Below are positions 1 through 21,500 of a DNA stretch of 24,000 nucleotides, piece after piece. The notes beneath the pieces were generated by a model, which made no database searches, had not been told where the DNA came from, and was given only the letters and a program-made list of their open reading frames with translations. The DNA is taken from NCBI GenBank assembly GCA_003151235.1, contig PLWZ01000027.1, positions 39,257 through 63,256 of the forward strand, in the 5' to 3' direction. A program made the position numbers and the translations under genes. Positions within the stretch are counted from its first letter, which is position 1. Every line of letters begins with the position of its first letter. Source of the DNA: Acidimicrobiaceae bacterium. GTDB taxonomy: Bacteria; Actinomycetota; Acidimicrobiia; Acidimicrobiales; RAAP-2.

Positions 1-1113
1 ACCCTTGACAAGAACGTCACCGACTGGGTCGTCTCCCGCAATCCGCACCTGATAACCCGTGAGCGAGCGGCCGGCAGAGACCGATTCCGCGCTCACTGCA
101 CCGTGACCAGTAGCACTCGACGGAGCTCGCACTGAGTTCCATTCCTCGCTCGGAGCGACCATCGAAACAGCAAGCGCCGCCTCTGCCAAGCCATAAGCAG
201 GGCAGAATGCTATGGGATCAAATCGTGCCGCAGCGAAAGCCTCAGAGAACCTTTGCAAGGTAGACGGTCTAATCGGCTCGCCCCCAATAATGCAGGCCCG
301 AACGGACTGCAGGTTGGGAGAAGAACCGCGGCGCTTCACTGCCATTTCCATTCCAAAGTTCGGCGTGCAGGTGATCGTCGACGAGAATTGCTCACACGCC
401 AGCAACCAGTTTGCTGGGCGCTTCAGAAAGGTTGAAGGACTCATGATGACAGTTTCCGTCCCATCGGCCCACTGGGGCCCACCCGCCACCAGTGACGACA
501 AAAGCATTCCAATCAGACCCATATCATGAGACAACGGTAACCAGGAGCAAGCCCCATCGCCGGGTCCAACTTCGAGCCGATTCAGGATAGCCAGAATGTT
601 GGCAACGATCATCCGTTGGGTAAGGCGAATTCCTTTTGGATTCGACGTGCTACCAGACGTGAATTGAACGAGCTCGAACTCGGTGCGTGAAACATCCCGG
701 CTGGGTCGACAATGAAGAACTGTTTCATAGGCCAGTATTTCGATGCCGGCCATCGGCGGAACCAGTGAGATCAGTTCCGCGTCTAAAACCAGTCGTCGCA
801 CCTGCGAAGATCGGCATACTGACTCCACAAACTTCTGATACCAGATCAGGTCCCCCCCTCGCGGGGGCAGCGGCAGAGAGACGACAGTCAAGCCTGATTG
901 GATTGCGCCAAGTAGACAAGTGACGCAGGCTACCGTATTGGACAAGAGCATCGCCGTTGGGCCGTCATTGATAGCGGAAACTCTGGCTCCGTGATCCCAA
1001 AGCTCTCCAACATTGACGTGCCGATTCTCGTCGAGAAAGTGAACAGCTGAGGAACCTAAGCCTAAAGAAATAAGATCAGCCAAGCTCGGCTCCCGAGCAA
1101 GTCGATCGCTCAC
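1..1113 (-). CDS. Fatty-acyl-AMP ligase / AMP-dependent synthetase (N-terminal ~370 codons; C-terminus lies beyond the left edge)
   Basis: Missing from the ORF track because it has no stop inside the window. My manual minus-strand translation from GTG 1113..1111 stays open to nt 1. It reads ...ELVQFTSGSTSNPKGIRLTQRM... (adenylation core motif, nt ~625-670), ...ACSWLPLSHDMGLIG... and ...CPAYGLAEAAL..., all typical of FAAL/FadD-type enzymes. The GTG start overlaps the TGA stop of the upstream gene (GTGA, 1110-1113). Confidence 0.75.
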   Translation of the reverse strand, partial: MSDRLAREPSLADLISLGLGSSAVHFLDENRHVNVGELWDHGARVSAINDGPTAMLLSNTVACVTCLLGAIQSGLTVVSLPLPPRGGDLIWYQKFVESVCRSSQVRRLVLDAELISLVPPMAGIEILAYETVLHCRPSRDVSRTEFELVQFTSGSTSNPKGIRLTQRMIVANILAILNRLEVGPGDGACSWLPLSHDMGLIGMLLSSLVAGGPQWADGTETVIMSPSTFLKRPANWLLACEQFSSTITCTPNFGMEMAVKRRGSSPNLQSVRACIIGGEPIRPSTLQRFSEAFAAARFDPIAFCPAYGLAEAALAVSMVAPSEEWNSVRAPSSATGHGAVSAESVSAGRSLTGYQVRIAGDDPVGDVLVKG

Positions 1114-2060
1114 GGGGAAAGAGAGCTGCAACGTCGTAGATATGCCAATGTGCTTAGAAGGCCAGCAGCCAATGATGTAGTTGGCTCCCAGTCCAAGATG
1201 CACTTAGCCCTCGAGACATCGGGACACCGACGGCGAGGGTCGTCAAGCGGCAGTTCGCTGTGCACGAGCGGAGACGGAGAGCCCGTCAGATCCAAAACCA
1301 TTTGGGCCAGTTCTAATATCGAATGCTCTTCCGGATTACCAAGATTGATTGCACCTACTACGTCTGAGTCTAAGAACGCTAGGACTCCTGAAACAAGGTC
1401 ATCGACAAAACACATACTCCGCGTCTGATTGCCGTCTCCATAAATCGTTAGCGGTTGGCACTGAAGGGCTTGCACCAAAAAATTGACCAATACTCGGCCG
1501 TCATCGAGCCTTTGCCGAGGGCCGTAGGTATTGAAGATTCGTAGGATCCCGACATCGGCACCTTTGTGCCTACACCAGGCCATCGACAGTGCTTCGGCAA
1601 AACGCTTCGATTCGTCGTAAACGCTTCTCGGACCGATGGGGTTTACGTAACCCCAGTAGCTCTCTGCTTGAGGGTGCTCTGTCGGATCTCCGTAGACCTC
1701 GCTGGAGGAAGCGAGCACAAATCGAGCCGCGCTACCTGCAGCCAATTCAAGAGCGTGCCGCGTGCCTTCACTGCCGGCAGCGAGGGTCTCCAATGGCCGA
1801 ACCAGGTACTCCGACGGGGATGCCGGGCTCGCAAAGTGGAGTACAGCGGCGACCGGCTCATCGACTGGCAGGTCGCGACTGACATCGGCCATAACAAACC
1901 GGAAGGCGGGGTGCCCCATCAGAGAGCTCAGGTTGTCCAACACGCCGGTCGAAAGGTTGTCGACACATACAACCCGGTCACCGCGAGCTACCAAGGCCTC
2001 GCATAGGTGGGATCCGAGGAAACCAGCTCCCCCAGTGACCACTACCGGCCGTTGACTCAT
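1110..2060 (-). CDS. UDP-glucuronate decarboxylase (UDP-xylose synthase)-like NAD-dependent epimerase/dehydratase
   Basis: 316-aa ORF. It has the N-terminal Rossmann motif VVVTGGAGFLGSHL and the SDR catalytic YDESK. The stretch SSSEVYGDPTEHPQAESYWGYVNPIGPRSVYDESKR is characteristic of the UXS subfamily. Confidence 0.85.
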   Translation of the reverse strand: MSQRPVVVTGGAGFLGSHLCEALVARGDRVVCVDNLSTGVLDNLSSLMGHPAFRFVMADVSRDLPVDEPVAAVLHFASPASPSEYLVRPLETLAAGSEGTRHALELAAGSAARFVLASSSEVYGDPTEHPQAESYWGYVNPIGPRSVYDESKRFAEALSMAWCRHKGADVGILRIFNTYGPRQRLDDGRVLVNFLVQALQCQPLTIYGDGNQTRSMCFVDDLVSGVLAFLDSDVVGAINLGNPEEHSILELAQMVLDLTGSPSPLVHSELPLDDPRRRCPDVSRAKCILDWEPTTSLAAGLLSTLAYLRRCSSLSP

Positions 2061-2180
2061 AGGAAAGTCCGATCGTCGTGATCGTGGCGATCACTCATAC
2101 GCATAGATCTTGCATTTGAGGTCCGGAGCGATTCAGTGACTGGGCTCTCGGATTCTGCCTGGCGCGCTGGACTGAACCAC

Positions 2181-3491
2181 TCACCTGCGCCCAATCCCGA
2201 AGTAGGTGAAGCCCAGATTTCGCAGCGCTACTCGGTCGAGCAGGTTGCGGGTGTCAAGGATCGTCGGTGCGGTTAGAAGATCCTGGATCTTTGAAAAGTC
2301 GATCGCACGGAACTCGTCCCACTCAGTAAGCAACAAGACAGCCTGAGCTCCATCGCAAGCGGCGTAGGCACTCGCCGCAATGCGCGCATGCTGACCCAGT
2401 TCTGGGAGCTCGTGACTCACCGTTGGGTCGTAGGCTTGCACGCGAGACCCTTCGCTGATGAGACGGCTAACAATTTCCATCGCCGGCGAGCCGCGTCGGT
2501 CGTCCGTTCCCGCCTTAAACGTGAGCCCCCAAACGGCGATCCGAGCGTCCCGTAGTTTCCCGCCCACGGCGAGCCGGACCCTATCGACGATTGCGGAAAC
2601 ATGGTCAGCGTTAGCTGCAATTGCCGCCTTTATTAGTTCGACATTGACGGCTGTCTGCTCCCCAGCCGATACCAGCGCCCGGACGTCCTTAGGCAGGCAA
2701 GAGCCTCCCCACCCAGGGCCCGGACTGAGGTATTCAGAGCCAATCCGCGGATCGTGTCCCATACCAAGGAGGACATCGCCTACGTCTCCCCCTAAGCTGT
2801 CACACAGGTCGGCGACCAGATTGACAAAGCTCAACTTGGTCGCCAGAAAAGCGTTGGAGGCAAGTTTTATTATCTCCGCGCTCTCCGGGTCTGTTATCAC
2901 CAGAGGGCAGCAAGAGAGGCCTGCGATTAGCTTGGCGACCTTTAAGACTGCCGTGTGGTCGCTTCCACCGACGACGACGCGCTCAGGGTGCAGGCTGTCA
3001 TAGACGGCCGAACCTTCCCGAAGGAATTCCGGATTACAGACGAGGGCGGCGCACGACTTGAAGAGTTGCTGTTCCATCCGCCGTGTCCAACCGATAGGCA
3101 CGGTAGATCTAACGGCAAGAATGGTATGCGGTTCTAGATTGCTCCGAACATCACCCAAAACGGCTTCAACCGTGGTGGTATCGACGGTGCCATCATCCAG
3201 GGCTGGCGTTGGAAGGCAAAGGAAGACCACCTCGGCGCCTGCTACTGCAGCGGCCGACCCGACAACGAAGCGCAGACGGCCGGTAGCGAGGCCCTCTCTA
3301 ACCAGCTCGCCAACGCCGGCTTCCAACATTACCGACTCGCCTTGGAGGAGGCGCTCGATCTTGAATCTATCGTGGTCGCCACAACAGACTTCGTGCCCTA
3401 GATGCGCTAGGCACACCGCGGTCGTGAGGCCGGCATAACCAGCCCCGATTACGGCAATTCGCGATAGATCCGGAGCTCGATTGGGGTTCAA
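2181..3491 (-). CDS. ugd: UDP-glucose 6-dehydrogenase
   Basis: 436-aa ORF with the N-terminal NAD motif IAVIGAGYAGL, NPEFLREGSAVYD and the catalytic-Cys motif GWGGSCLPKD. The apparent start is TTG at 3491; I saw no in-frame ATG nearby. Confidence 0.9.
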   Translation of the reverse strand: MNPNRAPDLSRIAVIGAGYAGLTTAVCLAHLGHEVCCGDHDRFKIERLLQGESVMLEAGVGELVREGLATGRLRFVVGSAAAVAGAEVVFLCLPTPALDDGTVDTTTVEAVLGDVRSNLEPHTILAVRSTVPIGWTRRMEQQLFKSCAALVCNPEFLREGSAVYDSLHPERVVVGGSDHTAVLKVAKLIAGLSCCPLVITDPESAEIIKLASNAFLATKLSFVNLVADLCDSLGGDVGDVLLGMGHDPRIGSEYLSPGPGWGGSCLPKDVRALVSAGEQTAVNVELIKAAIAANADHVSAIVDRVRLAVGGKLRDARIAVWGLTFKAGTDDRRGSPAMEIVSRLISEGSRVQAYDPTVSHELPELGQHARIAASAYAACDGAQAVLLLTEWDEFRAIDFSKIQDLLTAPTILDTRNLLDRVALRNLGFTYFGIGRR

Positions 3492-5277: not shown

Positions 5278-5601
5278 TCAGGGTTTGCCTGCCTCGATCC
5301 ACGACTGAACCCGGGCATCGACGATGCGCCGGGTGTCCGGCAGCTGGGCCCATGCTCGGAAACGAGATTTCTCGTCCGGAGATAGCCTAGAGAATAGAGT
5401 GCTCCCCCGGCGGGCTGGAGAACTCTTACCGACGGTGCGAGCCTTTTCTACGTACGGCTTCAGAGCCGAACGAAACTGCTCAAGGTTGGACTCGCTTAGG
5501 TCGATCTCGTAGGACTTGCTATCGAGGGAAAAAATGACCGTGTGGTGAGCATCTCCACCATCGAGGTCGTCGATCAGTTTTACAACCACCGTCTGGGCCA
5601 T
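5278..5601 (-). CDS. lsr2: Lsr2-family nucleoid-associated protein (xenogeneic silencer)
   Basis: From ATG 5601..5599 the product starts MAQTVVVKLIDDLDGGDAHHTVIFSLDSKSYEIDLSESNLEQFRSALKPYVEKARTVG.... This parallels the mycobacterial Lsr2 N-terminal dimerisation domain (V.V.L.DD.DG...T..F.LDG..YEIDLS..N...). It is followed by a basic linker and a C-terminal FRAWA...RRI...V..W domain. The longer 158-aa track ORF is probably an upstream in-frame extension. Confidence 0.8.
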   Translation of the reverse strand: MAQTVVVKLIDDLDGGDAHHTVIFSLDSKSYEIDLSESNLEQFRSALKPYVEKARTVGKSSPARRGSTLFSRLSPDEKSRFRAWAQLPDTRRIVDARVQSWIEAGKP

Positions 5602-5614
5602 GGGCCAAGACTTT

Positions 5615-5688
5615 ACACAATGTGTGCGACCTCTCACAATTTGTACCAACTCTGACAATTTGTACCGACACCCACCGTGTGTACCGAC
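5615..5688. promoter_or_regulatory. Cluster of four related ACA(N)TGT-core palindromic half-sites directly upstream of lsr2
   Basis: acacaatgtgt (5615-5625), acaatttgtacc (5636-5647), an identical acaatttgtacc (5655-5666) and gtgtgtaccgac (~5677-5688). Spacing is ~19-21 bp in a locally AT-richer stretch starting 14 bp upstream of the lsr2 ATG. Confidence 0.35.
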
Positions 5689-5789
5689 TCGCCGGCGCTC
5701 CGATGCCAGCGTGGATTGACGTCGCCTGACCTGGGACAGGCGCCAGTCACACATGGCGCCGGGAACCGCAGGTAGAGGAGAACCCGTGT

Positions 5790-8306: not shown

Positions 8307-8648
8307 TCAGCTGTCGGTCGGTGGCTGCCAACCACCGGTCGACCGGTGCCAACCGGATCCGGACTTGGCCCGATGCTGCAAAGCGACGGCGCCAATGACT
8401 CCGAAGGCAATCAGCACGCCACCGACCACAATCAACCAGTCGCTGATGTCCAGCCAGGCGTTGTACAGGCCGCAATGCGCTAGCCCACTTGGCACAACGT
8501 ATTGGCCGACCTGACCGACCGGCGAGATACAAGCGGCATGCAAAGGGTCATAGTGGGCATGCACGGCTATGCCGACGACCAGGAGGACAAACCCTCCCAC
8601 CACGCTCAGGATCAGCCGGCCGCCTGAGCTCTTTCCCGTTGTGGCCAT
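8307..8648 (-). CDS. Hypothetical small membrane protein (2 TM)
   Basis: 113-aa ORF. A strong SD (GGGAGGAGAA) sits immediately upstream of ATG 8648. The TM segments are LILSVVGGFVLLVVGIAV and WLIVVGGVLIAFGVIGAVAL. Confidence 0.6.
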   Translation of the reverse strand: MATTGKSSGGRLILSVVGGFVLLVVGIAVHAHYDPLHAACISPVGQVGQYVVPSGLAHCGLYNAWLDISDWLIVVGGVLIAFGVIGAVALQHRAKSGSGWHRSTGGWQPPTDS

Positions 8649-8799
8649 TTCTCCTCCCCTGCCCCAAAACAGGCGGCCGAAATCGAGGGCGTTCCTCCCA
8701 GCCCGGCCTAGCCGTGGGCGGTCACTGTACCAGGACGTACAGACATGGGATGTTTAGTCTCTGGATGTAGTCAGTTGGGGCGGCTGGGGTTGTTCCGAC

Positions 8800-9039
8800 A
8801 TGCCAGAACCCCTCTCAGTGGCCACCAAAGAATTCGGAGCTCGAGTGCGAGCCCGGCGCAAGGAACTCGGCAAGAGCCAAGAACGGCTGGCCGACGATTC
8901 CGGCTTGCATTGGACCTTCGTTGGCCAGGTCGAACGTGGCAGGCGGAACCTGACGCTGCACAACATTCTCAAACTGGCGGTGGGGCTCGAGATCGATGCC
9001 GGCGAACTTTTGCGAGATCTCACTGTCCCGAAACGCTGA
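8800..9039 (+). CDS. XRE-family helix-turn-helix transcriptional regulator
   Basis: 79 aa. FGARVRARRKELGKSQERLADDSGLHWTFVGQVERGRRNLTLHNILKLAVGLEIDAGELL is a classic Cro/C1-type HTH pattern. Confidence 0.85.
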   Translation: MPEPLSVATKEFGARVRARRKELGKSQERLADDSGLHWTFVGQVERGRRNLTLHNILKLAVGLEIDAGELLRDLTVPKR

Positions 9040-9155
9040 AGCAGGGCCTCAAGTGCGGGCAGGAGGCTTGCCCGGGCCGTGCCATTGCCGAAGCGGCGGT
9101 TTGAGTGTGTTCGAAGCCAGGGCCATCCACCAAGCTGGGCCAGATCATTGGAATC

Positions 9156-10259
9156 ATGGTTGTTCAAATGTCTCTTCAAGCCCGACTTCGCTCAGTCGAG
9201 ACCCAAGTTCTCGCCGAAAAGTTCCTGGTCTATGCCAGCAGCAATTGCACCGCTGTTGAGTGCCGAGCGCTCGCAGGTCGAGCCGATGGACTGGTCGTAA
9301 AGCAGGCGAACCGGACTGTCCTAAATGCTGCGAAATCGTCGGGATTTAGCGGACTCGTCCTCCTCGATCCCGCTGAATATGAACGACGGACAGGTCCGTC
9401 AGAGACAATCGTGCAAAGCCTTCTGGGCCAAAGAGACGCAATTTCCATTCAGCAGGAAGAAGAGGTCGACGCTTATCTCTCCCCGTCGGGCTACATCCCT
9501 GATGGAGATGTTGGTCTCCTCATGCGAGTGATCGAGGACGGTGCCGCTTTCTGTGCCGAGACAACCTCGGCATCTCACGTGGCACCAGCGTTCATCGTGC
9601 TTCCTGTGGGGAGCGCGTGGCTGGCACGAGACTCAGACCGTCGCGTTCTGATTGCAACTGCTCAAGCTTGTGGTTACCCCATCGCTATCGTCCTGGGTTC
9701 GGATTTCGACCCACTGAGCTCTCGAACCGCCGTTATCGGCTTGATTGACTTCGTGAGCGCTGTGAACAATGTCCTACTCCTTCGTGCTGACCTCAATTCC
9801 ATCGGTGGCGTCGCTTTAGGAGCCCTTTGCGCCGCGATCGGTGTCGGCACCGCCGGCCGCCACTTTCGCCCGCCGGGCGCACGGCCGAAACGGCGCGGGG
9901 CAACGACCGACAAATCGCCGTCCACACTTTGGATCCCGGGCGGCTCGTTCCATCGCGGATCGCTTTTCGAACACTCTTACGATGATCAGGGATTGCTCAA
10001 TTGTGCGTGCGCTGTCTGTGACGGACGCCACTTGCGACGGTTCGGAGACCCTGCCTCCCGTCCGGAGTCACGACTTCACAGTGTTGCCGGCTGGTACCAA
10101 ATTGCCCAGAATCTGATCGCTCATGATCCCGAAGACCGGCCCAAGGCTTGGCAAGCCCGATGTGAAATGGCGGTCGATGCCACGAAAGAACTGCGTCGCC
10201 GGACCCAGGTTGATTATCGGTCCCCGACGGCACAGATTTGGAAGAGCGTCCTGGGCTAG
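9156..10259 (+). CDS. TGT (tRNA-guanine transglycosylase)/DpdA-like protein; functional call is tentative
   Basis: The ORF is open from GTG 9105, with the first ATGs at 9156 and 9168. It carries a CxCxxC motif (NCACAVC, nt 10002-10019) and a His 20 residues later inside ...SRLHSVAGWYQIAQNLI... (His codon 10077-10079). Upstream lie SIGGVALGA and IGVGTAG, which recall the TGT GGLAVGE and MGVGTP motifs. The order and the GVG-to-CxC spacing resemble TGT; the GG-to-GVG spacing is shorter. Confidence 0.4.
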   Translation: MVVQMSLQARLRSVETQVLAEKFLVYASSNCTAVECRALAGRADGLVVKQANRTVLNAAKSSGFSGLVLLDPAEYERRTGPSETIVQSLLGQRDAISIQQEEEVDAYLSPSGYIPDGDVGLLMRVIEDGAAFCAETTSASHVAPAFIVLPVGSAWLARDSDRRVLIATAQACGYPIAIVLGSDFDPLSSRTAVIGLIDFVSAVNNVLLLRADLNSIGGVALGALCAAIGVGTAGRHFRPPGARPKRRGATTDKSPSTLWIPGGSFHRGSLFEHSYDDQGLLNCACAVCDGRHLRRFGDPASRPESRLHSVAGWYQIAQNLIAHDPEDRPKAWQARCEMAVDATKELRRRTQVDYRSPTAQIWKSVLG

Positions 10260-10864
10260 CCCGCAACCTCCGACACCGGGACGATGACGCCGGCTCTCAG
10301 CGCTTCGTCGAAGACTGTTTCGAGCAGGCGCCAATGTACGGGTCCGAGACGAACCGCCTTGGGTCGTGGTGGAAGCAGTTCGCTTGCAGGTCCCGTGAGG
10401 GGACGGTGCGCAACCCCAATACCGAGTTCGGCGGCCCAGTCCATGCTTGACCGCTGCGGTTTGCGAGCTGAGCAGACCACTACACCTCGCGGCGCCTGAG
10501 AAGCCAGGATCGCGACGTGGCGAACCCCCTCAACCAGAGATCGGACCTCGGAGACCACCCCTGTCAACTTGAGCGCCGGTCGCCAACGCCGACGAACCCT
10601 ATTGCCATGATGCTCGACTGCTCCACGAGGTGCGGCGTCCAACATCACTAAGACGATCGGATCAATCCGGGCACGCGGAATGGACACGCCAAGCGGCAGG
10701 GAAGCTAGGGCTTCCAGAGAACGGCGATCGGTAATCGAGTCGAGACCATGCTCGGCCCGCCTTTGAACCTCATCTAGGTCGAACTCGACCCAAGCGTCAA
10801 ACCGCCTGTCAAGGTAACGGACGTCCCCCACAAGGTGACTTGTAAACCCAAACGGCCCTCTCAC
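10256..10864 (-). CDS. Hypothetical protein, translationally coupled to the upstream XRE regulator
   Basis: 202-aa ORF. Its GTG start overlaps the TGA of the HTH gene (GTGA at 10861-10864). No recognisable motif. Its stop shares the tetranucleotide CTAG (10256-10259) with the stop of the convergent TGT-like gene. Confidence 0.55.
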   Translation of the reverse strand: MRGPFGFTSHLVGDVRYLDRRFDAWVEFDLDEVQRRAEHGLDSITDRRSLEALASLPLGVSIPRARIDPIVLVMLDAAPRGAVEHHGNRVRRRWRPALKLTGVVSEVRSLVEGVRHVAILASQAPRGVVVCSARKPQRSSMDWAAELGIGVAHRPLTGPASELLPPRPKAVRLGPVHWRLLETVFDEALRAGVIVPVSEVAG

Positions 10865-11130
10865 TGGGACAAGACCTCGTCAGCAAGGTCGTCAAGGCTC
10901 TTCCCAAGTCCGCGTACAACGATCTGCGCCACGATGCAGAACCCCGGGTCCGTAACTTTGCTGGCCTCGATGCTCCTGATGGTGTCGACCTGAACGCCGG
11001 ACTTGGCCGCTAAGGCATCTTGGGTGACTGCCTCGCCACTTCCCCCACCGGCGACCCGCCACTCGCGCACCCGAACCGCCAAGACCCGGCCTCGCTCTCG
11101 TTCATCGGCGGTACGCTGACGTCGACTCAT
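10861..11130 (-). CDS. XRE-family helix-turn-helix transcriptional regulator
   Basis: From ATG 11130 the 89-aa product is MSRRQRTADERERGRVLAVRVREWRVAGGGSGEAVTQDALAAKSGVQVDTIRSIEASKVTDPGFCIVAQIVVRGLGKSLDDL..., a Cro/C1-type HTH layout. There is no SD. A TAATAT/TATAAT -10-like box lies 4-7 nt upstream of the ATG. Confidence 0.75.
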   Translation of the reverse strand: MSRRQRTADERERGRVLAVRVREWRVAGGGSGEAVTQDALAAKSGVQVDTIRSIEASKVTDPGFCIVAQIVVRGLGKSLDDLADEVLSQ

Positions 11131-11134
11131 GAGG

Positions 11135-11143
11135 ATTATATTA
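11135..11143 (-). promoter_or_regulatory. Candidate -10 element for a leaderless XRE transcript
   Basis: The minus strand reads gTAATATAATcctcATG. The overlapping TAATAT and TATAAT hexamers end 7 and 4 nt before the A of the ATG, and no SD is present. Confidence 0.3.
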
Positions 11144-11419
11144 CTAGGTTTATTGTTCTCTGCCTGACAATAGATGCTTCTCGTACGAACACGAAGCCGA
11201 CGGTTTGCACCGGGTGGGTGCTCCAGCGTCGGGTTGATCTTCCGCACCTCACGCCCGAGCGGGTTTGGACCAGCCGGGCGGCGAAGAAGGGCCGCCGTGT
11301 TCGCCAGTCCGGAACTCGGGCCCGAAAAGGCTGGCGGTGACTAGCCGTCGCTCTGTCTGACCGTGTATCGTGGGCGAAGGTGAACTCGGGCTTCGAGTTC
11401 CAAACCGCAGAGGCAGTCC

Positions 11420-12829
11420 GTGCGGATTTTGTCGTCGGTCATACCGACCGCTGAACAGTTACCAATCCTCAACGACAGCCGACCGGGCTTTCGCGTCATT
11501 CGTGGCGCTGCCGGGAGCGGTAAGACCACAACCGCTCTCTTGCGCCTCAAGCAGTTGTGCGCGACCCGGCTCACGCGACGAAATCGCCTCGGTGAGACCG
11601 AGCCTGTTCGAGTGTTGGTTCTCACGTACAACACAACGCTTCAGGGCTATATCGCTGAGCTCGCTCGGTCCCAAGTGGCCGGAGATGCCGGCCTCATCCT
11701 CAACGTGAGTACCTTTTCAAAATGGGCCAAGGATCTCATCGAGAACCTCGCCATCCTCGATCACGGCCAGATCGAAGGGATCCTCCGCCCGTTGCTCCGT
11801 CCCGTCATTCCTGGCTCCGCGGCGATCGAATATTTTTTGCAGGAAGTTGAGTACGTCTTGTCGATGTTTCTTCCGGAGGACCTGCCTAACTACCTGGGGA
11901 TGCGAAGAGAGGGCAGAGGAGGTTCTCCTCGCATCGATCGATCGCTCCGAGAACGCCTTCTAAATGAGGTCATCTACCCGTACGAGGACGTCAAGCTGGC
12001 CCGAGGAAAAATGGACTGGAATGATCTCGCGCTTGAGGCCATCGGCGCTCCTGGCCCGGCTTACGACATCGTGATCATCGATGAAGCCCAAGACTTTTCG
12101 GCCAATCAAGTGCGGGCTGTTATCTCACACCTGGCCGATGATGCTTCTGTCACCTTCGTGATCGACGCCGTGCAGCGGATCTATCCGCGGTTCTTTAGAT
12201 GGAACGAAGTGGGCGTCACGATTCGGCCAGAGCAGAGCTACAGGCTCACCTGCAACCACCGCAACACACGCCAGATTGCTGCGTTCGCATTGCCGCTCGT
12301 CGAGAATCTTCCACTCGAGGACGACGGCTCACTCCCCGACTTCACTACCTGCGAGGAGGAAGGCCCGCTGCCCGAGGTCGTCTCCGGGACCTATAGCCAG
12401 CAACTCGATTACATGCTGGATCGTCTGATCGATCGAGTCGACCTGAATAGCGAGTCGGTGGCGATTCTCCAGCCAAAAGGTGGTGGATGGTTTGCTTTCG
12501 CGCGAAAAGCTCTGCAACTTAGGGGAATCCCATACTGCGAGCTAACGCGGCAGAGCGACTGGCCGGCCGGTCCGGCCAACGTAGGAATCTCTACGATCCA
12601 TTCGGCCAAGGGCTTGGAGTTCGACCACGTCCTCTTGCCGGGAATGAATCGTGAGGTGACCCCCCATGGTCTCGAAGAAGGCGACGGTTCGCTGGAGGGT
12701 CTTCAGCGCCTGTTTGCCATGGGAGTCGGAAGGGCTCGGCGGTCCGTGATCGTCGGGTGCAAGCCGGGTGAAGAATCCACGCTCATCAGCCTTCTCGACC
12801 CAGCGACTTACACGATGGTCAAACTATGA
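11420..12829 (+). CDS. UvrD/Rep-like SF1 helicase-family ATPase (compact, 469 aa)
   Basis: Walker A IRGAAGSGKTTTAL (nt ~11500-11535), Walker B/motif II IVIIDEAQDF (~12067-12096), YRLTCNHRNTRQI (motif IV-like), TIHSAKGLEFDHVLL (motif V) and GVGRARRS (motif VI). GTG start at 11420. Confidence 0.85.
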   Translation: MRILSSVIPTAEQLPILNDSRPGFRVIRGAAGSGKTTTALLRLKQLCATRLTRRNRLGETEPVRVLVLTYNTTLQGYIAELARSQVAGDAGLILNVSTFSKWAKDLIENLAILDHGQIEGILRPLLRPVIPGSAAIEYFLQEVEYVLSMFLPEDLPNYLGMRREGRGGSPRIDRSLRERLLNEVIYPYEDVKLARGKMDWNDLALEAIGAPGPAYDIVIIDEAQDFSANQVRAVISHLADDASVTFVIDAVQRIYPRFFRWNEVGVTIRPEQSYRLTCNHRNTRQIAAFALPLVENLPLEDDGSLPDFTTCEEEGPLPEVVSGTYSQQLDYMLDRLIDRVDLNSESVAILQPKGGGWFAFARKALQLRGIPYCELTRQSDWPAGPANVGISTIHSAKGLEFDHVLLPGMNREVTPHGLEEGDGSLEGLQRLFAMGVGRARRSVIVGCKPGEESTLISLLDPATYTMVKL

Positions 12830-13515
12830 GCGACACGATCGTAGAGGCGGTGCCCCGCGCTCTAAGGGACATCGCCCGGTTGCCGCAGCAGGACGAGGTG
12901 GTCGTCGCTGCCCGACAGCGCGGCATAACTGAGGTACTCCACTTCACAACCACGAAGAACCTCGTTGGGATCATTGCTTCGGGCTACCTCAAATGCCGCA
13001 ACCTCGTGTCTGAGGATCACTACGTCGAGAACGTTTACGACCCGAACTGCGGCGATCGCTCTCGAGACGCCATTTGGACTGGTTACGTCAATATGTCGAT
13101 CAGTCGAATAAATGCCTGGATGTTCCAGTCATCAACGCGATGGCATCTTTCTGACGGTAATAGCTGGGTGGTGCTGGCATTCGACCCGGTAGTCCTGGGA
13201 CACCCAGGCGTTATCTTCGCCACTACGAACAATGCGTACCGAGGCATATGTCTTCGGGCAGAGGGGAAGGCAGGCTTCGATCGAATGTTCGGGGACAGAG
13301 TGCGGGGCTACAACCGTGAGCTTTCTCGGGGGTCGCTAGATCCGAAGTATCCCACAGATAGGTGCGCCGAGGTTCTCTACCCAGAGCAACTCAGCATCGA
13401 ATATCTTACGAAACTTTACGTTCAGATCGAGACCGACCAGGATCACATTCCGGGGATCCTCACCAGTCTCGACTGCCGAATACCCCTTGAGTATGTCCCG
13501 GAGGTTTTCGCGTGA
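12826..13515 (+). CDS. DarT-like (DUF4433-type) ADP-ribosyltransferase
   Basis: 229 aa. VLHFTTTKNLVGIIASGYLK (nt ~12934-12993) parallels the Thermus DarT N-terminus IYHITHIDNLKGILRMGKLL. GYVNMSIS parallels DYVPFYF. RCAEVLYPEQLSIEYLTKLYV (nt ~13360-13422) parallels the catalytic-Glu segment KQAEFLVYKAFPWALIEEIAV. Its ATG overlaps the helicase stop (ATGA, 12826-12829). The comparison is from my memory of the DarT sequence, not from a search. Confidence 0.65.
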   Translation: MSDTIVEAVPRALRDIARLPQQDEVVVAARQRGITEVLHFTTTKNLVGIIASGYLKCRNLVSEDHYVENVYDPNCGDRSRDAIWTGYVNMSISRINAWMFQSSTRWHLSDGNSWVVLAFDPVVLGHPGVIFATTNNAYRGICLRAEGKAGFDRMFGDRVRGYNRELSRGSLDPKYPTDRCAEVLYPEQLSIEYLTKLYVQIETDQDHIPGILTSLDCRIPLEYVPEVFA

Positions 13516-15203
13516 CGGAGGAGCAACCGCGATCGGGTGTGACGCCGCCAATGTTTTCGATGTCCAGAGGCAACGGAGATCGACTCACGCGCACCGTACG
13601 TTCGGCCCTTTGGGCGGCGTATGGAGACGCGCTTGGGTTCATCAGTGAGCTAACTGACAACGAGGGTCTATCCCGCCGGACCAAGGGTCAACCGCTAGTA
13701 AGGCCGATGGCGTGGACTCGGTACGTCGGCGGACGCCAGGGTGTCAAGGTACTTCTGCCATCAGGCTGCTATTCGGACGACACCCAACTCCGACTCTGCT
13801 GTTCTCGTGCGATCGGACCCAGGGGGTTCGATGTCGAAGCGTTCGCAAAGGTGGAACTGACAGTTTGGCCGTCATATGCACTCGGCGGTGGCATCGGAAC
13901 TAAAGCCGCCGCGGCAAATCTGGTCAAAGATCAAGTTGCGTGGTATTGCAATACGTTCAAAGGATGGACGGAGGCTGGGGGTAACGGCGCAGCCATGCGC
14001 GTTCAACCGCATGTTTGGGCTGCCGCTGATCTGGAGTCCTTCGCAAGCTTCACTCCAGACGTCCTCAGAGACGCGATTTGCACGCACGGCAGTCCCACCG
14101 GGATCCTCGGAGCCGTCTTACACGCCATGTGTACCGCTCACGCGATCAGCCGAGGGGAACTTCCTCGACCGCCGGATGTTCTGACAATGATTCAAGCCTG
14201 TGAAGACATTCCAGAGATGCTCATGCGAAATGATCATGAGATTGGTGAGATCTGGCTGGGCCTTTGGAATCGGGAGGCTGGCAGACAGTTCGCTGAGGCC
14301 TGGAGTTCGACAGTCAGCACTGCACGAGAGGCGGTCGGACTGGTCGCAAGCGAAGCTAGTAGTGAGGCGACCAGCTACATGCGGGTTTTGGACATGCTCA
14401 AGCTCTTCGATCCGGCCATCCGAGGGAGCGGATTGTTAACTGCAATCGCAGCCATCGCGCTTTTGTGGATCGAGCCCGATCTGGCGAAGGCCTTGCCTGT
14501 CGCTGCCCAAGCACTGGGTTCGGACACTGACACAATTGCGACAATGGCCGGTGCCGTTGGAGGAGCTGTCGCAACTGGCGATCCGGACGGCAGCATCGCT
14601 GACGAGCGCCTAATCCGAGACGAGGCGACGAGACTGTTTAACTTGGCTGAAGGCGCGGAGCGCCCGGGGCACCGGTATCCGGATCTACTTCACTGGGCAC
14701 CTCCGCGCACACAAGCCGACGCATTGGTCGAGGGCCTGTCCGGCCTTGAGGTTGTCGGTCTGGGACCCGTACGCACTGGAAGTGAGCCAATCTTGGATGC
14801 GCACGGGAACTTCATGTGGCAATGGGTAGAACTCGACTTTGGTCAGAACCTGCTTGTTAAGCGGCGCCGAGTTCTGAACCCGGTCGACGGCCAACACCCG
14901 AAGCGCAGCGGTCCTCAGGTAATGAGAGCTACTGGCGCCAACACAAAACACCAGTCGAGATCGCCTAGACGGCCACGCGGCGAGGCAACATCAGCCGACT
15001 CGCAGGAACCATCTTCAAGCCAGGACCCGAAGCCGCTTCCAATCGATCGAGGCGTCGAACTTGAAACAGCTATTGGCTGGCTCGGTGAGAATGAACTGAG
15101 TGACAAGGCTATCGGGTATGCAATCCGACGAGTTGCTCGAGACGGATCTCCTGAACAGCTTCTGATGCTGATCGGCATCCTCCGCGAACGGCTGAGGCAC
15201 TAA
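13512..15203 (+). CDS. ADP-ribosylglycohydrolase (ARH/DraG family) with a ~190-aa C-terminal extension
   Basis: 563 aa. ARH signatures are ALWAAYGDALGF, CYSDDTQL (nt ~13767-13790), GGNGAAMRV (~13978-14004) and GSDTDTIATMAGAVGGA (~14518-14568). GTG 13512 overlaps the DarT-like stop (GTGA) and has GGAGG 7 nt upstream. The C-terminus has a basic, Ser/Pro-rich linker (KHQSRSPRRPRGEATSADSQEPSSSQDPKP) followed by a short helical module. Confidence 0.85.
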   Translation: MTEEQPRSGVTPPMFSMSRGNGDRLTRTVRSALWAAYGDALGFISELTDNEGLSRRTKGQPLVRPMAWTRYVGGRQGVKVLLPSGCYSDDTQLRLCCSRAIGPRGFDVEAFAKVELTVWPSYALGGGIGTKAAAANLVKDQVAWYCNTFKGWTEAGGNGAAMRVQPHVWAAADLESFASFTPDVLRDAICTHGSPTGILGAVLHAMCTAHAISRGELPRPPDVLTMIQACEDIPEMLMRNDHEIGEIWLGLWNREAGRQFAEAWSSTVSTAREAVGLVASEASSEATSYMRVLDMLKLFDPAIRGSGLLTAIAAIALLWIEPDLAKALPVAAQALGSDTDTIATMAGAVGGAVATGDPDGSIADERLIRDEATRLFNLAEGAERPGHRYPDLLHWAPPRTQADALVEGLSGLEVVGLGPVRTGSEPILDAHGNFMWQWVELDFGQNLLVKRRRVLNPVDGQHPKRSGPQVMRATGANTKHQSRSPRRPRGEATSADSQEPSSSQDPKPLPIDRGVELETAIGWLGENELSDKAIGYAIRRVARDGSPEQLLMLIGILRERLRH

Positions 15204-15218
15204 GAGCAAGCCTATCCA

Positions 15219-15785
15219 ATGTCAGTAGCCGATCAGATTCTGAACTTTGTAAAGACCCTCGTGTGGCCAGCGGTGGTCGTGACGGCCGTGCTTACATTTC
15301 GCCCGCAACTGGCCAGGTTGATTAGCAGAGTGACCGAGGTGAGCGCAGCAGGCGCCTCCGTGAAGTTCAGTGACGAAGTCGACGAACTGGCCGACACCGC
15401 GGATTCTGTGCTTCGCGAGGTGCGAGGTAACTTCGCGCCCGAAGAGACTCCCCCACTGCCGGTTTCGACGCTCCAGGTTGAGAAGGAGCCCACCGCAGCA
15501 TTTCTCGACGCTTACCGAGAGTTGGAGACAGCTGCCCGTGAAGTGGCAGTTGCCTCGGGCGCCACGTCACCCTTGTTGATCCCGGTCCTAAAGGGCCTGG
15601 CCGACAAGGACCTTCTGCCCGACGAGGCAGTGCATTTGGGAGAAGAGCTTCGTAGCATTCGAAATCGTGTCGCTCATGCGCTTCAGCACCTGACCCCGGA
15701 GGATGCAACAGGCCTAGTCGCAGCGGCGAATTCGTTGGCAAATGCTTGCCGTGCGATTACTGAAGGGATCGAGGACCCTGACTAG
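15219..15785 (+). CDS. Hypothetical protein: N-terminal hydrophobic helix plus a C-terminal Rx4H (HEPN/DUF4145-like) helical domain
   Basis: 188 aa. The hydrophobic segment is TLVWPAVVVTAVLTF. The motif ELRSIRNRVAHAL contains R-N-R-V-A-H (nt 15660-15677). It starts 16 nt after the ARH stop on the same strand, with no clear SD. Confidence 0.5.
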   Translation: MSVADQILNFVKTLVWPAVVVTAVLTFRPQLARLISRVTEVSAAGASVKFSDEVDELADTADSVLREVRGNFAPEETPPLPVSTLQVEKEPTAAFLDAYRELETAAREVAVASGATSPLLIPVLKGLADKDLLPDEAVHLGEELRSIRNRVAHALQHLTPEDATGLVAAANSLANACRAITEGIEDPD

Positions 15786-19402: not shown

Positions 19403-19894
19403 ATGGGACGTTACTCGAACCTCTGTGACCAGGGAGAACGTCTTCGGGCACTGCTCGAAATGGTGCCCGAAGGCCCTTCGACGGCAATTCCGCGAACCAT
19501 CAAGCAAATCCAACGACGACTTCGTGGGGCCGAAATCGACCAGCTGGTGGCCAGCTACCGAGCAGGCGCCACGGTCTACGAATTGAGTGCCCAGTTCGGG
19601 ATGCACCGTCACACCGTGTCGGAGGTTCTAGAGCGACGCGGGGTGTCTCGCCGATACCAGAGGCTCTCCCTGGAGCAGGTCGACTTGGCATGCACCCTCT
19701 ACGAGAGTGGGCACTCCCTGATCAAGGTGGGTGAGCAACTAGGTCGGAAGGCAGAGACCGTACGACAGGCGCTGATGAAGGCCGGAGTTGAGATCAAACC
19801 CCGGAATGGGTGGCACAGCGAGCGAGGCGCTGACGGTAACCATCATCACCGGGATAACCCAGTCAATTTGTATATGCGACCGGAGCAATTGTGA
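19403..19894 (+). CDS. DNA-binding protein with two tandem resolvase/HTH_7-like helix-turn-helix repeats
   Basis: The repeats are EIDQLVASYRAGATVYELSAQFGMHRHTVSEVLERRGV and LEQVDLACTLYESGHSLIKVGEQLGRKAETVRQALMKAGV. The start is uncertain: ATG 19403 has GGGAGG only 2 nt upstream, and ATG 19460 is an alternative. The 3' end overlaps the convergent gene by 32 nt. Confidence 0.6.
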   Translation: MGRYSNLCDQGERLRALLEMVPEGPSTAIPRTIKQIQRRLRGAEIDQLVASYRAGATVYELSAQFGMHRHTVSEVLERRGVSRRYQRLSLEQVDLACTLYESGHSLIKVGEQLGRKAETVRQALMKAGVEIKPRNGWHSERGADGNHHHRDNPVNLYMRPEQL

Positions 19895-21500
19895 GTTCGA
19901 CTTGCTGTCTCCTACATTCATCGACGAGGCGCAGGAGCCGCATACGGCTGAACGAGAACAGGGACTCCGCGTCGATTTTCCTCCGGTTACCCATAACAAG
20001 AACCGCCTGACGCGGTATGTCGGGAATCCATGCCGGGTCACCACCTTGAGCTTCAACGACTTTGATCAACCCGGCGCGTGCCGAAGCATCCTCCCGAAGA
20101 GCTAGTGCCGAGACTCCGGCCTGAGCGAAGAGATGGCTTGCCCCAGTGCTTCTTCCCACGGCCTTCACGTGCACGAACACCCCTTCGGGTGTCAGCACAT
20201 CACAACTCTCAAATCCCCGTGGGTTCGTTTCGCACCGAACGAGTCGGCGGTCAAGATTTACCCCGCCAAGAGCATCAGCGAGAGACCGATTGAATTCAGG
20301 TTCACCCACACCCGTAGGCCACAGCGGCAAGCCATGGATCGGCGGCTCAGCGGCGAAGATACGAGCGAGACGCTCAGAGAGGCGGTGGTTGAGCCCGTCA
20401 TCAACCATGTACCACCGACCGTTATGCATACAGAAGCGGTGCCCAGCGGACGTCGTCTCAAAGGTCACCCACTGCCGGGCTGGAAGCAAGCTACTGGCAG
20501 CTTCATTGTCGTCCGAAAAAGCCTGGACCTTCATCCGATCGAAGCGCCGCAGCCGCTCGCCGTCTGGGAGTGAACGGAGCGGGTCAAGGAGCGCTCCCAA
20601 AGTCATTCCATTCGGATCGTCGTCGCCGCCGAGGATTCCAGACACTCTGAAGTGGGACAAAGGTACGGCTTCGTCGGCGAGCTCGGTGGGCCAAGCCAAA
20701 CCCAGCGTTGGCGCGTCAGAATCACCAAGCGCTGCATCGAGAGCCTGTTCCAGCTCGGGCACATGGGAATCGGAGGACTTCAGCGCTCGGAGTTGCTCGA
20801 TGATCGCCAATTGCGGCACTGGATCGCGTTCGAGTAGCGCCTCGATGGCATCCAGGTCCGCCAAAAGACGCATCCCGTCACGGGCTAAGGGAAGGCTTAT
20901 CGCGTCTGCTCCTCGGATCTCGACTGGATCTCCCCCATCTCCCGCAAGTACTCCGTCCAAATAGGCAGGGCCAACGAGTCGACTGATGAGATCGCCGAGC
21001 TCGCTTGCGCCGAATCCACCGATATCGTCTCCTCCGGGTATAGATGTCCGGGCGACGTAGGCACGCAAGTCGAGCCTGGAATGTGTGATGGACCTGAGGT
21101 TGTCTGGATCAGCACAACGCGCAGCAAGGCGACGACCAAGGCTGGGCACCATTCGGGCGGCTTCAATCAGGTGAAACCCCATACCGAAGCAAATCGCCCA
21201 CACGCAATCGGAGTCGGGATCCCGGGTCGGCAAAAGAAGAACCCCTGCCGCGGTCGTGTTGCCCAACCCAGCGGCGATGGAGTCGTCATTGGTCCAGGTT
21301 GCAACTACGTACGTCCACTTCGCTTGCTGCGATGCCACGGAACCACCCACGAAATAGCCATCCCTGTTTCCCACACGGACCGGAGTGCTCTCGAAGTCAT
21401 CTCGCTCCAGATACTTCGTGCGAAGAACCGTCCCCGGATCGAGAGGACCTTCAACTTGGTAAACGGAAACTCGGGTGTGTGGATTTGGCTGACGCGGCAT
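19863..21500 (-). CDS. TIGR04141/DUF6119-like 'sporadically distributed' protein with a C-terminal PD-(D/E)xK-type motif
   Basis: 545 aa. ATG 21500 has the SD GAGAAGGGGGG upstream. The C-terminal ...FESCDVLTPEGVFVHVKAVGRSTGASHLFAQAGVSALAL... (D ~20199-20201, VHVK 20163-20174) has a D...(x)K nuclease-fold layout followed by SHLF.Q..VS. I recall this layout from the TIGR04141 family, but that is memory-based and unverified. Confidence 0.55.
   Translation of the reverse strand: MPRQPNPHTRVSVYQVEGPLDPGTVLRTKYLERDDFESTPVRVGNRDGYFVGGSVASQQAKWTYVVATWTNDDSIAAGLGNTTAAGVLLLPTRDPDSDCVWAICFGMGFHLIEAARMVPSLGRRLAARCADPDNLRSITHSRLDLRAYVARTSIPGGDDIGGFGASELGDLISRLVGPAYLDGVLAGDGGDPVEIRGADAISLPLARDGMRLLADLDAIEALLERDPVPQLAIIEQLRALKSSDSHVPELEQALDAALGDSDAPTLGLAWPTELADEAVPLSHFRVSGILGGDDDPNGMTLGALLDPLRSLPDGERLRRFDRMKVQAFSDDNEAASSLLPARQWVTFETTSAGHRFCMHNGRWYMVDDGLNHRLSERLARIFAAEPPIHGLPLWPTGVGEPEFNRSLADALGGVNLDRRLVRCETNPRGFESCDVLTPEGVFVHVKAVGRSTGASHLFAQAGVSALALREDASARAGLIKVVEAQGGDPAWIPDIPRQAVLVMGNRRKIDAESLFSFSRMRLLRLVDECRRQQVELTIAPVAYTN

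Follow-up and report, generated by a model that had tools for sequence, protein, structure and literature searches.

The stretch of DNA considered here (24,000 nucleotides, hereafter the window) comes from an Acidimicrobiaceae bacterium (assembly GCA_003151235.1, contig PLWZ01000027.1, positions 39,257 to 63,256 of the forward strand). It contains a gene, here called A, whose product carries a CxCxxC...H zinc motif and was likened in a preliminary description of the sequence to the tRNA-guanine transglycosylases (TGTs) and to their DNA-acting relative DpdA. Gene A is met end to end by a convergent gene, here called B, and the two recur as a pair, mainly in Actinomycetota. The features of the pair in the window are:

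Gene A, 9156 to 10259, forward strand: 367 amino acids (aa), predicted triosephosphate isomerase (TIM) barrel with a C-terminal CxCxxC...H zinc module
Zinc-module ligand codons of gene A, forward strand: Cys283, Cys285 and Cys288 at 10002 to 10019 and His308 at 10077 to 10079, assigned from conservation and from alignment to the CxCxxC...HN of E. coli Tgt
Gene B, 10256 to 10864, reverse strand: 202 aa, convergent with A, its conserved partner, with no recognisable domain

The longest open reading frame (ORF) for A spans 9105 to 10259 on the forward strand and encodes 384 aa counted from the first GTG. The starts of homologues align with the residues encoded at 9156 (MVVQMS) or 9168 (MS) and the true product is therefore probably 363-367 aa; residue numbering throughout follows the 367-aa form. 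The sequences SIGGVALGA, IGVGTAG, NCACAVC and LHSVAGWYQIAQNLI were all found, in that order, with the His codon 20 residues beyond the last Cys. The ORF and the preceding XRE gene, the CxCxxC...H motif, the coordinates and the motif order given in the preliminary description were all confirmed, and its length range of 368-384 aa fits the product proposed here.

The protein gave no match in Pfam, NCBIfam, PADLOC, PHROGs or the PDB sequences even at E-value thresholds of 1-10, tblastn of A against phage genomes found nothing, and the A/B module had no nucleotide-level match in plasmids. A word-index homology search returned merely three to four relatives for A or B. An exhaustive HMMER search recovered 485 representatives of the A family (clusters at 50% identity) at E<=1e-3, of which 285 reached E<=1e-10. 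In the two plasmid records that were looked at, members are labelled ‘hypothetical protein’, and no description of the family or of its partner B was found in the literature. Further loci were collected with a degenerate DNA pattern, applied to the GTDB species collection, that corresponds to R.D..[AG].[GD]....G[AG]..[AG][AS][IV]G.....RH. This returned at least 120 loci, and hmmsearch found an A-family protein encoded in 107 of the 120 listed. Nearly all the loci listed belong to Actinomycetota (Streptomyces, Dactylosporangium, Amycolatopsis, Lentzea, Nocardiopsis, Actinosynnema, Frankia, Tsukamurella and Acidimicrobiia) and one is from a Burkholderiales metagenome-assembled genome. The family is present in more than 100 species genomes, mostly of Actinomycetota.

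An alignment of 119 full-length relatives (22-50% identity) was used to assess conservation. C283 and H308 are present in all 119 sequences, C288 in 113 and C285 in 99; loss of these residues among homologues had been named beforehand as a finding that would speak against a relationship to TGT, and they are conserved. Outside the zinc motif G229 and R235 are invariant, and high conservation is seen at D212 (118 of the 119), H236 (115), G222 (114), R210 (113), W155 (110), P186 (110), Q99 (108), D71 (107) and Y75 (99). Position 185 is Asp or Asn in 117 sequences (96 Asp and 21 Asn).

The predicted fold of A and its relation to TGT and DpdA

With the 119-sequence alignment as input, AlphaFold2 produced a confident model of A (predicted local distance difference test score, pLDDT, 93.7; predicted template modelling score, pTM, 0.92) consisting of eight alternating β/α units. 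After β8 come a short helix and then a β-hairpin (256-267); the Cys loop (283-288) follows, and a long helix (299-321) bears His308. The structural zinc site of DpdA and TGT has the spacing CXCX2CX22H, with the Cys residues contributed by an insertion between β8 and α8 that comprises a short helix and a hairpin, and the His by α8 (PMC10164549). The spacing in A is CxCx2Cx19H, and its predicted zinc module is laid out like this β8/α8 insertion. As modelled, A shares with the proteins of PF01702 and their relatives (such as S. Montevideo DpdA and the Tgt proteins of Z. mobilis and E. coli) the (β/α)8 barrel, the Cys loop that comes after a short helix and β-hairpin inserted past β8, and the His that follows the CxCxxC cluster some 20-25 residues on, in the last barrel helix. 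It differs in the Cx19H spacing, against Cx22H in DpdA, and in the lack of an N-terminal β-lid.

Foldseek searches of PDB and BFVD with the model retrieved only TIM barrels, with probabilities of up to 0.99-1.0. The top 50 PDB matches were metabolic TIM barrels (best E of 6e-3, TM scores of 0.3-0.4), and no TGT was among them. In BFVD two unnamed proteins came top (E of 6e-4 and 1e-3) and phage ‘queuine tRNA-ribosyltransferases’ ranked 6 and 14 (E of 0.019 and 0.052, TM 0.40-0.51). A preferential match to the TGT fold was not seen.

Profile comparisons, which had been proposed against PF01702 and the DpdA models, were likewise negative for the family. None of the 119 members matched the Pfam TGT model at E<=0.1 or a TGT-type NCBIfam model, and a single member matched PADLOC DpdA (E=0.0037). 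A search of PDB with the A profile matched Z. mobilis TGT below significance (E=2-9), and only between profile positions 268-324 and TGT residues 317-379, which form the zinc subdomain. An hhalign comparison of A with an alignment of diverse phage DpdA proteins (from 9g and from Stenotrophomonas, Rhizobium, Mycobacterium, Streptococcus, Arthrobacter, Rhodococcus, Dinoroseobacter and Cellulophaga phages) detected no relation (probability 0.07%). Comparison with an alignment of canonical TGTs aligned only the CxCxxC...H module and the next helix (54 columns, E=0.0039 for this single comparison, probability 8.5%), and the single sequences of 9g DpdA and E. coli Tgt aligned in the zinc module alone. 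E. coli Tgt used as a query in viral contigs returned near-identical matches only.

The catalytic positions were compared by inspection of motifs, with no superposition of structures. D71-x3-Y75 of A, located after β3, resembles DSGGF of Tgt and DSGAF of phage DpdA, an Asp-x3-aromatic motif that is common to both groups. The spacing of D264-x5-R270 in E. coli Tgt is the same as that of G229-x5-R235 in A, and on this basis the position of the nucleophilic Asp of TGT would be occupied in A by the invariant Gly. The position after β4 that holds the base-recognition Asp is Ser/Thr-Pro in A, and an Asp at position 110 is found in 17 of the 119 sequences. A has instead a conserved Arg-x-Asp, R210-x-D212, which the model places on β7. 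Structure prediction had been suggested as a way to look for a barrel, a zinc subdomain and catalytic Asp residues; the first two appear in the model, and D71 could be the first of the three Asp residues of TGT, the general acid/base located after β3. SIGGVALGA and IGVGTAG, earlier likened to GGLAVGE and MGVGTP of TGT, cannot both be matched in this way, because a gap of 5 residues, across β7-helix-β8, separates them in A and one of about 30 separates the motifs of E. coli Tgt.

The architecture of A is TGT-like in its barrel and zinc module, and membership of the family is not demonstrable. A is probably not a DpdA-type transglycosylase and is no orthologue of TGT or DpdA; a very divergent relationship to their superfamily is the most likely one. 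A structural zinc knuckle would hold its barrel together. One practical consequence is that a CxCxxC...H motif is by itself insufficient for annotation as DpdA.

Gene B and the convergent A-B pair

In the window the stop regions of A and B overlap by 4 nucleotides (nt). On the contigs of A relatives with 48-49% identity, a gene of about 201 aa is likewise convergent to A with a 4-nt overlap of the ends and is preceded by a small helix-turn-helix (HTH) gene. B homologues adjoin A at the loci numbered L001, L003, L004, L005, L009-L012 and L025-L028 in our collection. The pattern recurs at 28-41% identity (L025, L026, L027 and a Tsukamurella plasmid). On the Tsukamurella plasmid an AbrB/MazE gene takes the place of the HTH gene before B and the pairing is kept to about 28% identity.

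Neighbours were counted over the 123 A-family loci listed. An iterative hidden Markov model (HMM) of B found the gene in 92 of the 123 loci listed, on the strand opposite to A in all 92 cases and with ORF 3' ends that mostly overlap by 4-50 nt. Among the listed scan loci with at least 650 nt of sequence downstream of A, B was present in 75 of 94 (about 80%). A had been described as an orphan that stands alone; the survey of homologous neighbourhoods refutes this, as B is a recurrent partner.

B had no match in Pfam, PADLOC or PDB, and its only invariant residues are R36 and E182. The closest homologue of the window B (62% identity) lies at 8001-8606 of L007 (GCA_030155765.1, contig JALYEP010000058.1), a locus without A. 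This lone B is the last gene of an operon, within a mobile element, that contains four DNA methyltransferases (Dcm-type, MT-A70, N6_N4 and D12). The operon also encodes DUF5131, a kinase-like AAA_18 ATPase and a glycosyltransferase, and an FtsK-like gene is nearby. The L007 copy may be an anti-defence copy of B.

Regulators and neighbouring genes

Three further features flank the pair in the window:

XRE-family HTH regulator, 8800 to 9039, forward strand: 79 aa, C-protein/CapH-like, upstream of A
Small HTH protein upstream of B, 10861 to 11130 (ORF to 11247), reverse strand: about 89 aa if the start is Met40; its stop overlaps the start of B by 4 nt
Direct repeat of GGATGT(TT)AGTC, two copies, GGATGTTTAGTC and GGATGTAGTC, 8748 to 8772, no strand assigned: 28-52 nt upstream of the XRE start codon, read from the sequence

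The XRE protein matches Pfam HTH_3 (2.7e-10) and HTH_31 (7.8e-9) and PADLOC Control_protein (4e-16) and capH (6.3e-6). No direct orthologue of it was found at the other A loci listed. Directly upstream of A and on the same strand, 36 of the 123 loci (about 30%) have a fusion of HTH_3 with Peptidase_M78 (ImmA/IrrE) of about 370 aa, and the window XRE matches an HMM of the N-terminal HTH of these fusions (1.9e-5). The window locus has the 79-aa HTH alone, without the M78 peptidase. The reported XRE regulator upstream of A is accordingly present in the window, although the gene as such is not conserved and corresponds to the HTH half of the HTH-ImmA/IrrE fusions. HTH/M78 modules of the CapH/CapP type de-repress immune operons after DNA damage (10.1101/2022.04.27.489752). 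The A loci resemble such modules in the combination of HTH_3 and Peptidase_M78 directly upstream of A and in the capH match of the window XRE, and differ in that HTH and peptidase are fused in one protein, in that the window carries the HTH only and in that the A/B cargo is no known system.

In L001, L003 and L004 the gene upstream of B encodes 61-89 aa, and alignment with these genes was used to place the start of the HTH gene before B in the window. Its match to Pfam HTH_3 is weak (0.02), and a homologue in L025 matches HTH_31. An HTH gene upstream of B was seen in only about 12 of the loci listed. A conserved XRE or HTH partner of A or B was considered and rejected, as these are subgroup-specific genes. 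The direct repeat may, on weak evidence from its position and sequence, be an operator for the XRE protein. No sigma-70-like promoter was found within 8500-11500, and no tRNA gene marking the locus was found.

For the neighbour survey the flanking ORFs of the A loci were clustered and Pfam was run on the cluster representatives. Defence neighbours comprised Bil, GmrSD, DarT-Macro (DarTG), HsdM and a STAND NTPase; genes of mobility comprised integrases, TniQ and IS21, and some A loci are on plasmids. No conserved metabolic neighbours were found in the clustering. In L003 (668-3474), L004 and L010 the A homologue is preceded on its own strand, at a distance of about 80 nt, by a complete Bil defence operon (BilA-D, ubiquitin-like). 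In a divergent Dactylosporangium-type subgroup of the family (L042, L064, L084 and L091) A is preceded by a Pfam-less protein of about 1072 aa and a Peptidase_S8 subtilase and followed by another large protein of no known kind.

Genes for 7-deazaguanine synthesis and insertion were sought with phmmer in all ORFs of the A loci, with 9g FolE, QueD, Gat-QueC and QueE, phage DpdAs and ParB as queries. FolE, QueC, QueD, DpdA and ParB were found near A in none of the 123 loci, and the only match was a weak QueE-like radical-SAM protein in L102 (E=2.9e-4). DpdB and DpdC were also not found among the neighbours of A at these loci. The phage DpdA genes used for comparison, by contrast with A, adjoin preQ0-type genes. 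The large ORFs of the window include no queuosine, preQ0 or dpd gene, in agreement with the preliminary description.

That description had also drawn attention to the combination of A with a DNA ADP-ribosylation cassette. DarT adjoins the A/B module at two of the 123 loci, the window and L027. In L027 (1730-4221) B is directly preceded, on its own strand and at a distance of 139 nt, by DarT (PF14487) and a Macro-domain DarG. The two DarT proteins show no similarity detectable by phmmer. Since the adjacency is limited to two loci with dissimilar DarTs, it is co-location within islands, and a functional link between A and DarT was rejected. The window DarT itself belongs to an operon at 11420-15785 on the forward strand in which stop and start codons overlap. 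The operon encodes a UvrD-like helicase (PADLOC C3a187/GajB-like), a DarT-like ADP-ribosyltransferase (PADLOC DarT 7e-9), a DUF4145 protein and a 563-aa ADP-ribosylglycohydrolase (Pfam ADP_ribosyl_GH 1.5e-24) of the ARH/DraG type, where a macrodomain DarG is usual. The operon resembles a DarT system, though an atypical one. Elsewhere in the window are a 545-aa protein with a near end-to-end match to DUF6119 (19863-21500, reverse strand, 6.6e-88), an uncharacterised island gene; an Lsr2-family nucleoid-associated protein (5278-5754, reverse strand, 1.8e-24), a pointer to the window's actinobacterial origin; and sugar-nucleotide enzymes, an epimerase and a UDP-glucose dehydrogenase, at 1110-3491.

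Possible roles of the A/B module

Our preferred reading, held tentatively, is that A is the enzymatic half of a hitherto undescribed and mainly actinobacterial module made up of A and convergent B, which resides in mobile or defence regions under the control of XRE or XRE-ImmA/IrrE regulators. A would be the active and potentially harmful component, acting on nucleic acid through the barrel's C-terminal face. The invariant residues at this site would be D71-x3-Y75, Q99, R210-x-D212 and G229-x5-R235-H236. Because the nucleophile of TGT appears to be missing, its chemistry should differ from that of TGT, and base excision or another hydrolytic attack would be expected in place of 7-deazaguanine insertion through a covalent intermediate. 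B, in which an Arg and a Glu alone are invariant, is for that reason more likely a protector than an enzyme, and would be an immunity protein or inhibitor. Protection through inhibition is more likely than protection through marks on DNA. The repressor could hold A off until DNA damage or infection relieves repression, and the balance of A to B could be set by overlapping convergent transcription together with the repressors. The arrangement has features of type II toxin-antitoxin systems: plasmids and islands carry A and B as a unit of two genes, translational coupling links B to a small gene for a DNA-binding protein (an HTH or, in Tsukamurella, AbrB/MazE), and B occurs alone in a mobile element. 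It departs from them in that A and B are convergent and not co-transcribed, are larger than is typical and match no known toxin or antitoxin family.

Several points weigh against this reading. Convergent orientation is unusual among toxin-antitoxin pairs. B was not detected in about 20% of the informative loci listed, and the Dactylosporangium-type subgroup lacks it. The AlphaFold2 model of B, built from four sequences, is poor (pLDDT 53); since B could not be modelled, its role is a guess from conservation and from one orphan occurrence. The A family is absent from PADLOC and so has no prior evidence of a part in defence. Similarity to TGT is not statistically detectable beyond the zinc module by Pfam, PADLOC or hhalign, and as Foldseek places TGT no higher than other barrels the zinc module could be convergent; the action of A on nucleic acid is itself something that we infer.

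Three other explanations were weighed, all of them considered less likely than the preferred one. It is very improbable that A is a genuine DpdA-like DNA transglycosylase that marks DNA as self by inserting a 7-deazaguanine base whose synthesis is encoded elsewhere in the genome. The barrel and zinc module laid out as in DpdA and TGT, the D71...Y75 motif and the ranks of the phage ribosyltransferases in the viral fold search would all fit such an enzyme, but there is no match to a TGT or DpdA profile, the motifs put an invariant Gly in place of the nucleophile and Ser/Thr in place of the base-recognition Asp, the biosynthetic and dpd genes and ParB are missing from the loci save for the weak QueE-like match, and the place of a conserved partner is taken by B instead of a Dpd protein. 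An arrangement like that of restriction-modification, in which B covalently modifies or marks the DNA of the host, unmarked DNA is attacked by A as a glycosylase or nuclease sensitive to the modification and the HTH provides timing in the manner of a C-protein, also appears unlikely. There are type II restriction-modification systems that are controlled by C-proteins and convergently arranged, and the A/B loci share with them a convergent, overlapping pair, a small XRE protein with a Control_protein match before A, a second regulator before B and a mobile, defence-island setting; the lone B among four orphan DNA methyltransferases, moreover, is in a typical place for a protective modification gene. 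Set against this, A has no known restriction-endonuclease signature and neither protein that of a methyltransferase, B shows no other enzyme signature and no database match, and conservation of the HTH genes does not extend across the family.

The remaining explanation, that A belongs to housekeeping or metabolism as a TIM-barrel enzyme with a small-molecule substrate, or that A is protective and B the effector, with the defence-island setting incidental, is comparably doubtful. The best PDB folds are isopentenyl diphosphate isomerase II, nitronate monooxygenase, epimerases and aldolases, all with E>=6e-3, and the top fold matches of B, weak and non-significant, are PA endonucleases of the PD-(D/E)xK type. 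However, the model of B is too poor for inference of its fold, and a lone B in a mobile element would not be expected of a toxin. For A, a metabolic role sits poorly with the patchy distribution of the family, its setting among plasmids, integrases, transposons and defence genes, its control by XRE/ImmA-type regulators and the lack of conserved metabolic neighbours.

If the preferred reading of A as an enzymatic effector is taken further, A might be a hydrolytic nucleic-acid glycosylase, derived from TGT and devoid of the covalent nucleophile, that acts as effector in a new, mainly actinobacterial system of phage defence or addiction, possibly directed against phage DNA that contains 7-deazaguanine, with B its immunity protein, which mobile elements carry alone as an anti-defence gene. 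This extended version is a speculative one and seems improbable as a whole. Phages with DpdA and preQ0 genes include Mycobacterium, Arthrobacter, Rhodococcus and Microbacterium phages.

A TGT-like barrel and a two-gene conflict module are both of known kinds; the A family and B are in none of the libraries searched. The A family is unannotated, with no model in Pfam, NCBIfam, PADLOC or PHROGs, and combines a wide distribution with a conserved partner and regulators of a damage-responsive type. The A/B module is a testable and widely distributed candidate whose tie to TGT chemistry is weak. If A proves to be an offshoot of TGT, it would add to the few TIM-barrel enzymes that act on nucleic acid (TGT/DpdA, Endo IV and TatD) and would represent a base-exchange scaffold re-used as a conflict effector. 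If the resemblance is convergent, A and B would still make a new candidate system of two genes, for defence or addiction, in Streptomyces, Mycobacteriales and their relatives, bacteria in which the immune repertoire has been explored less than in Enterobacteria.

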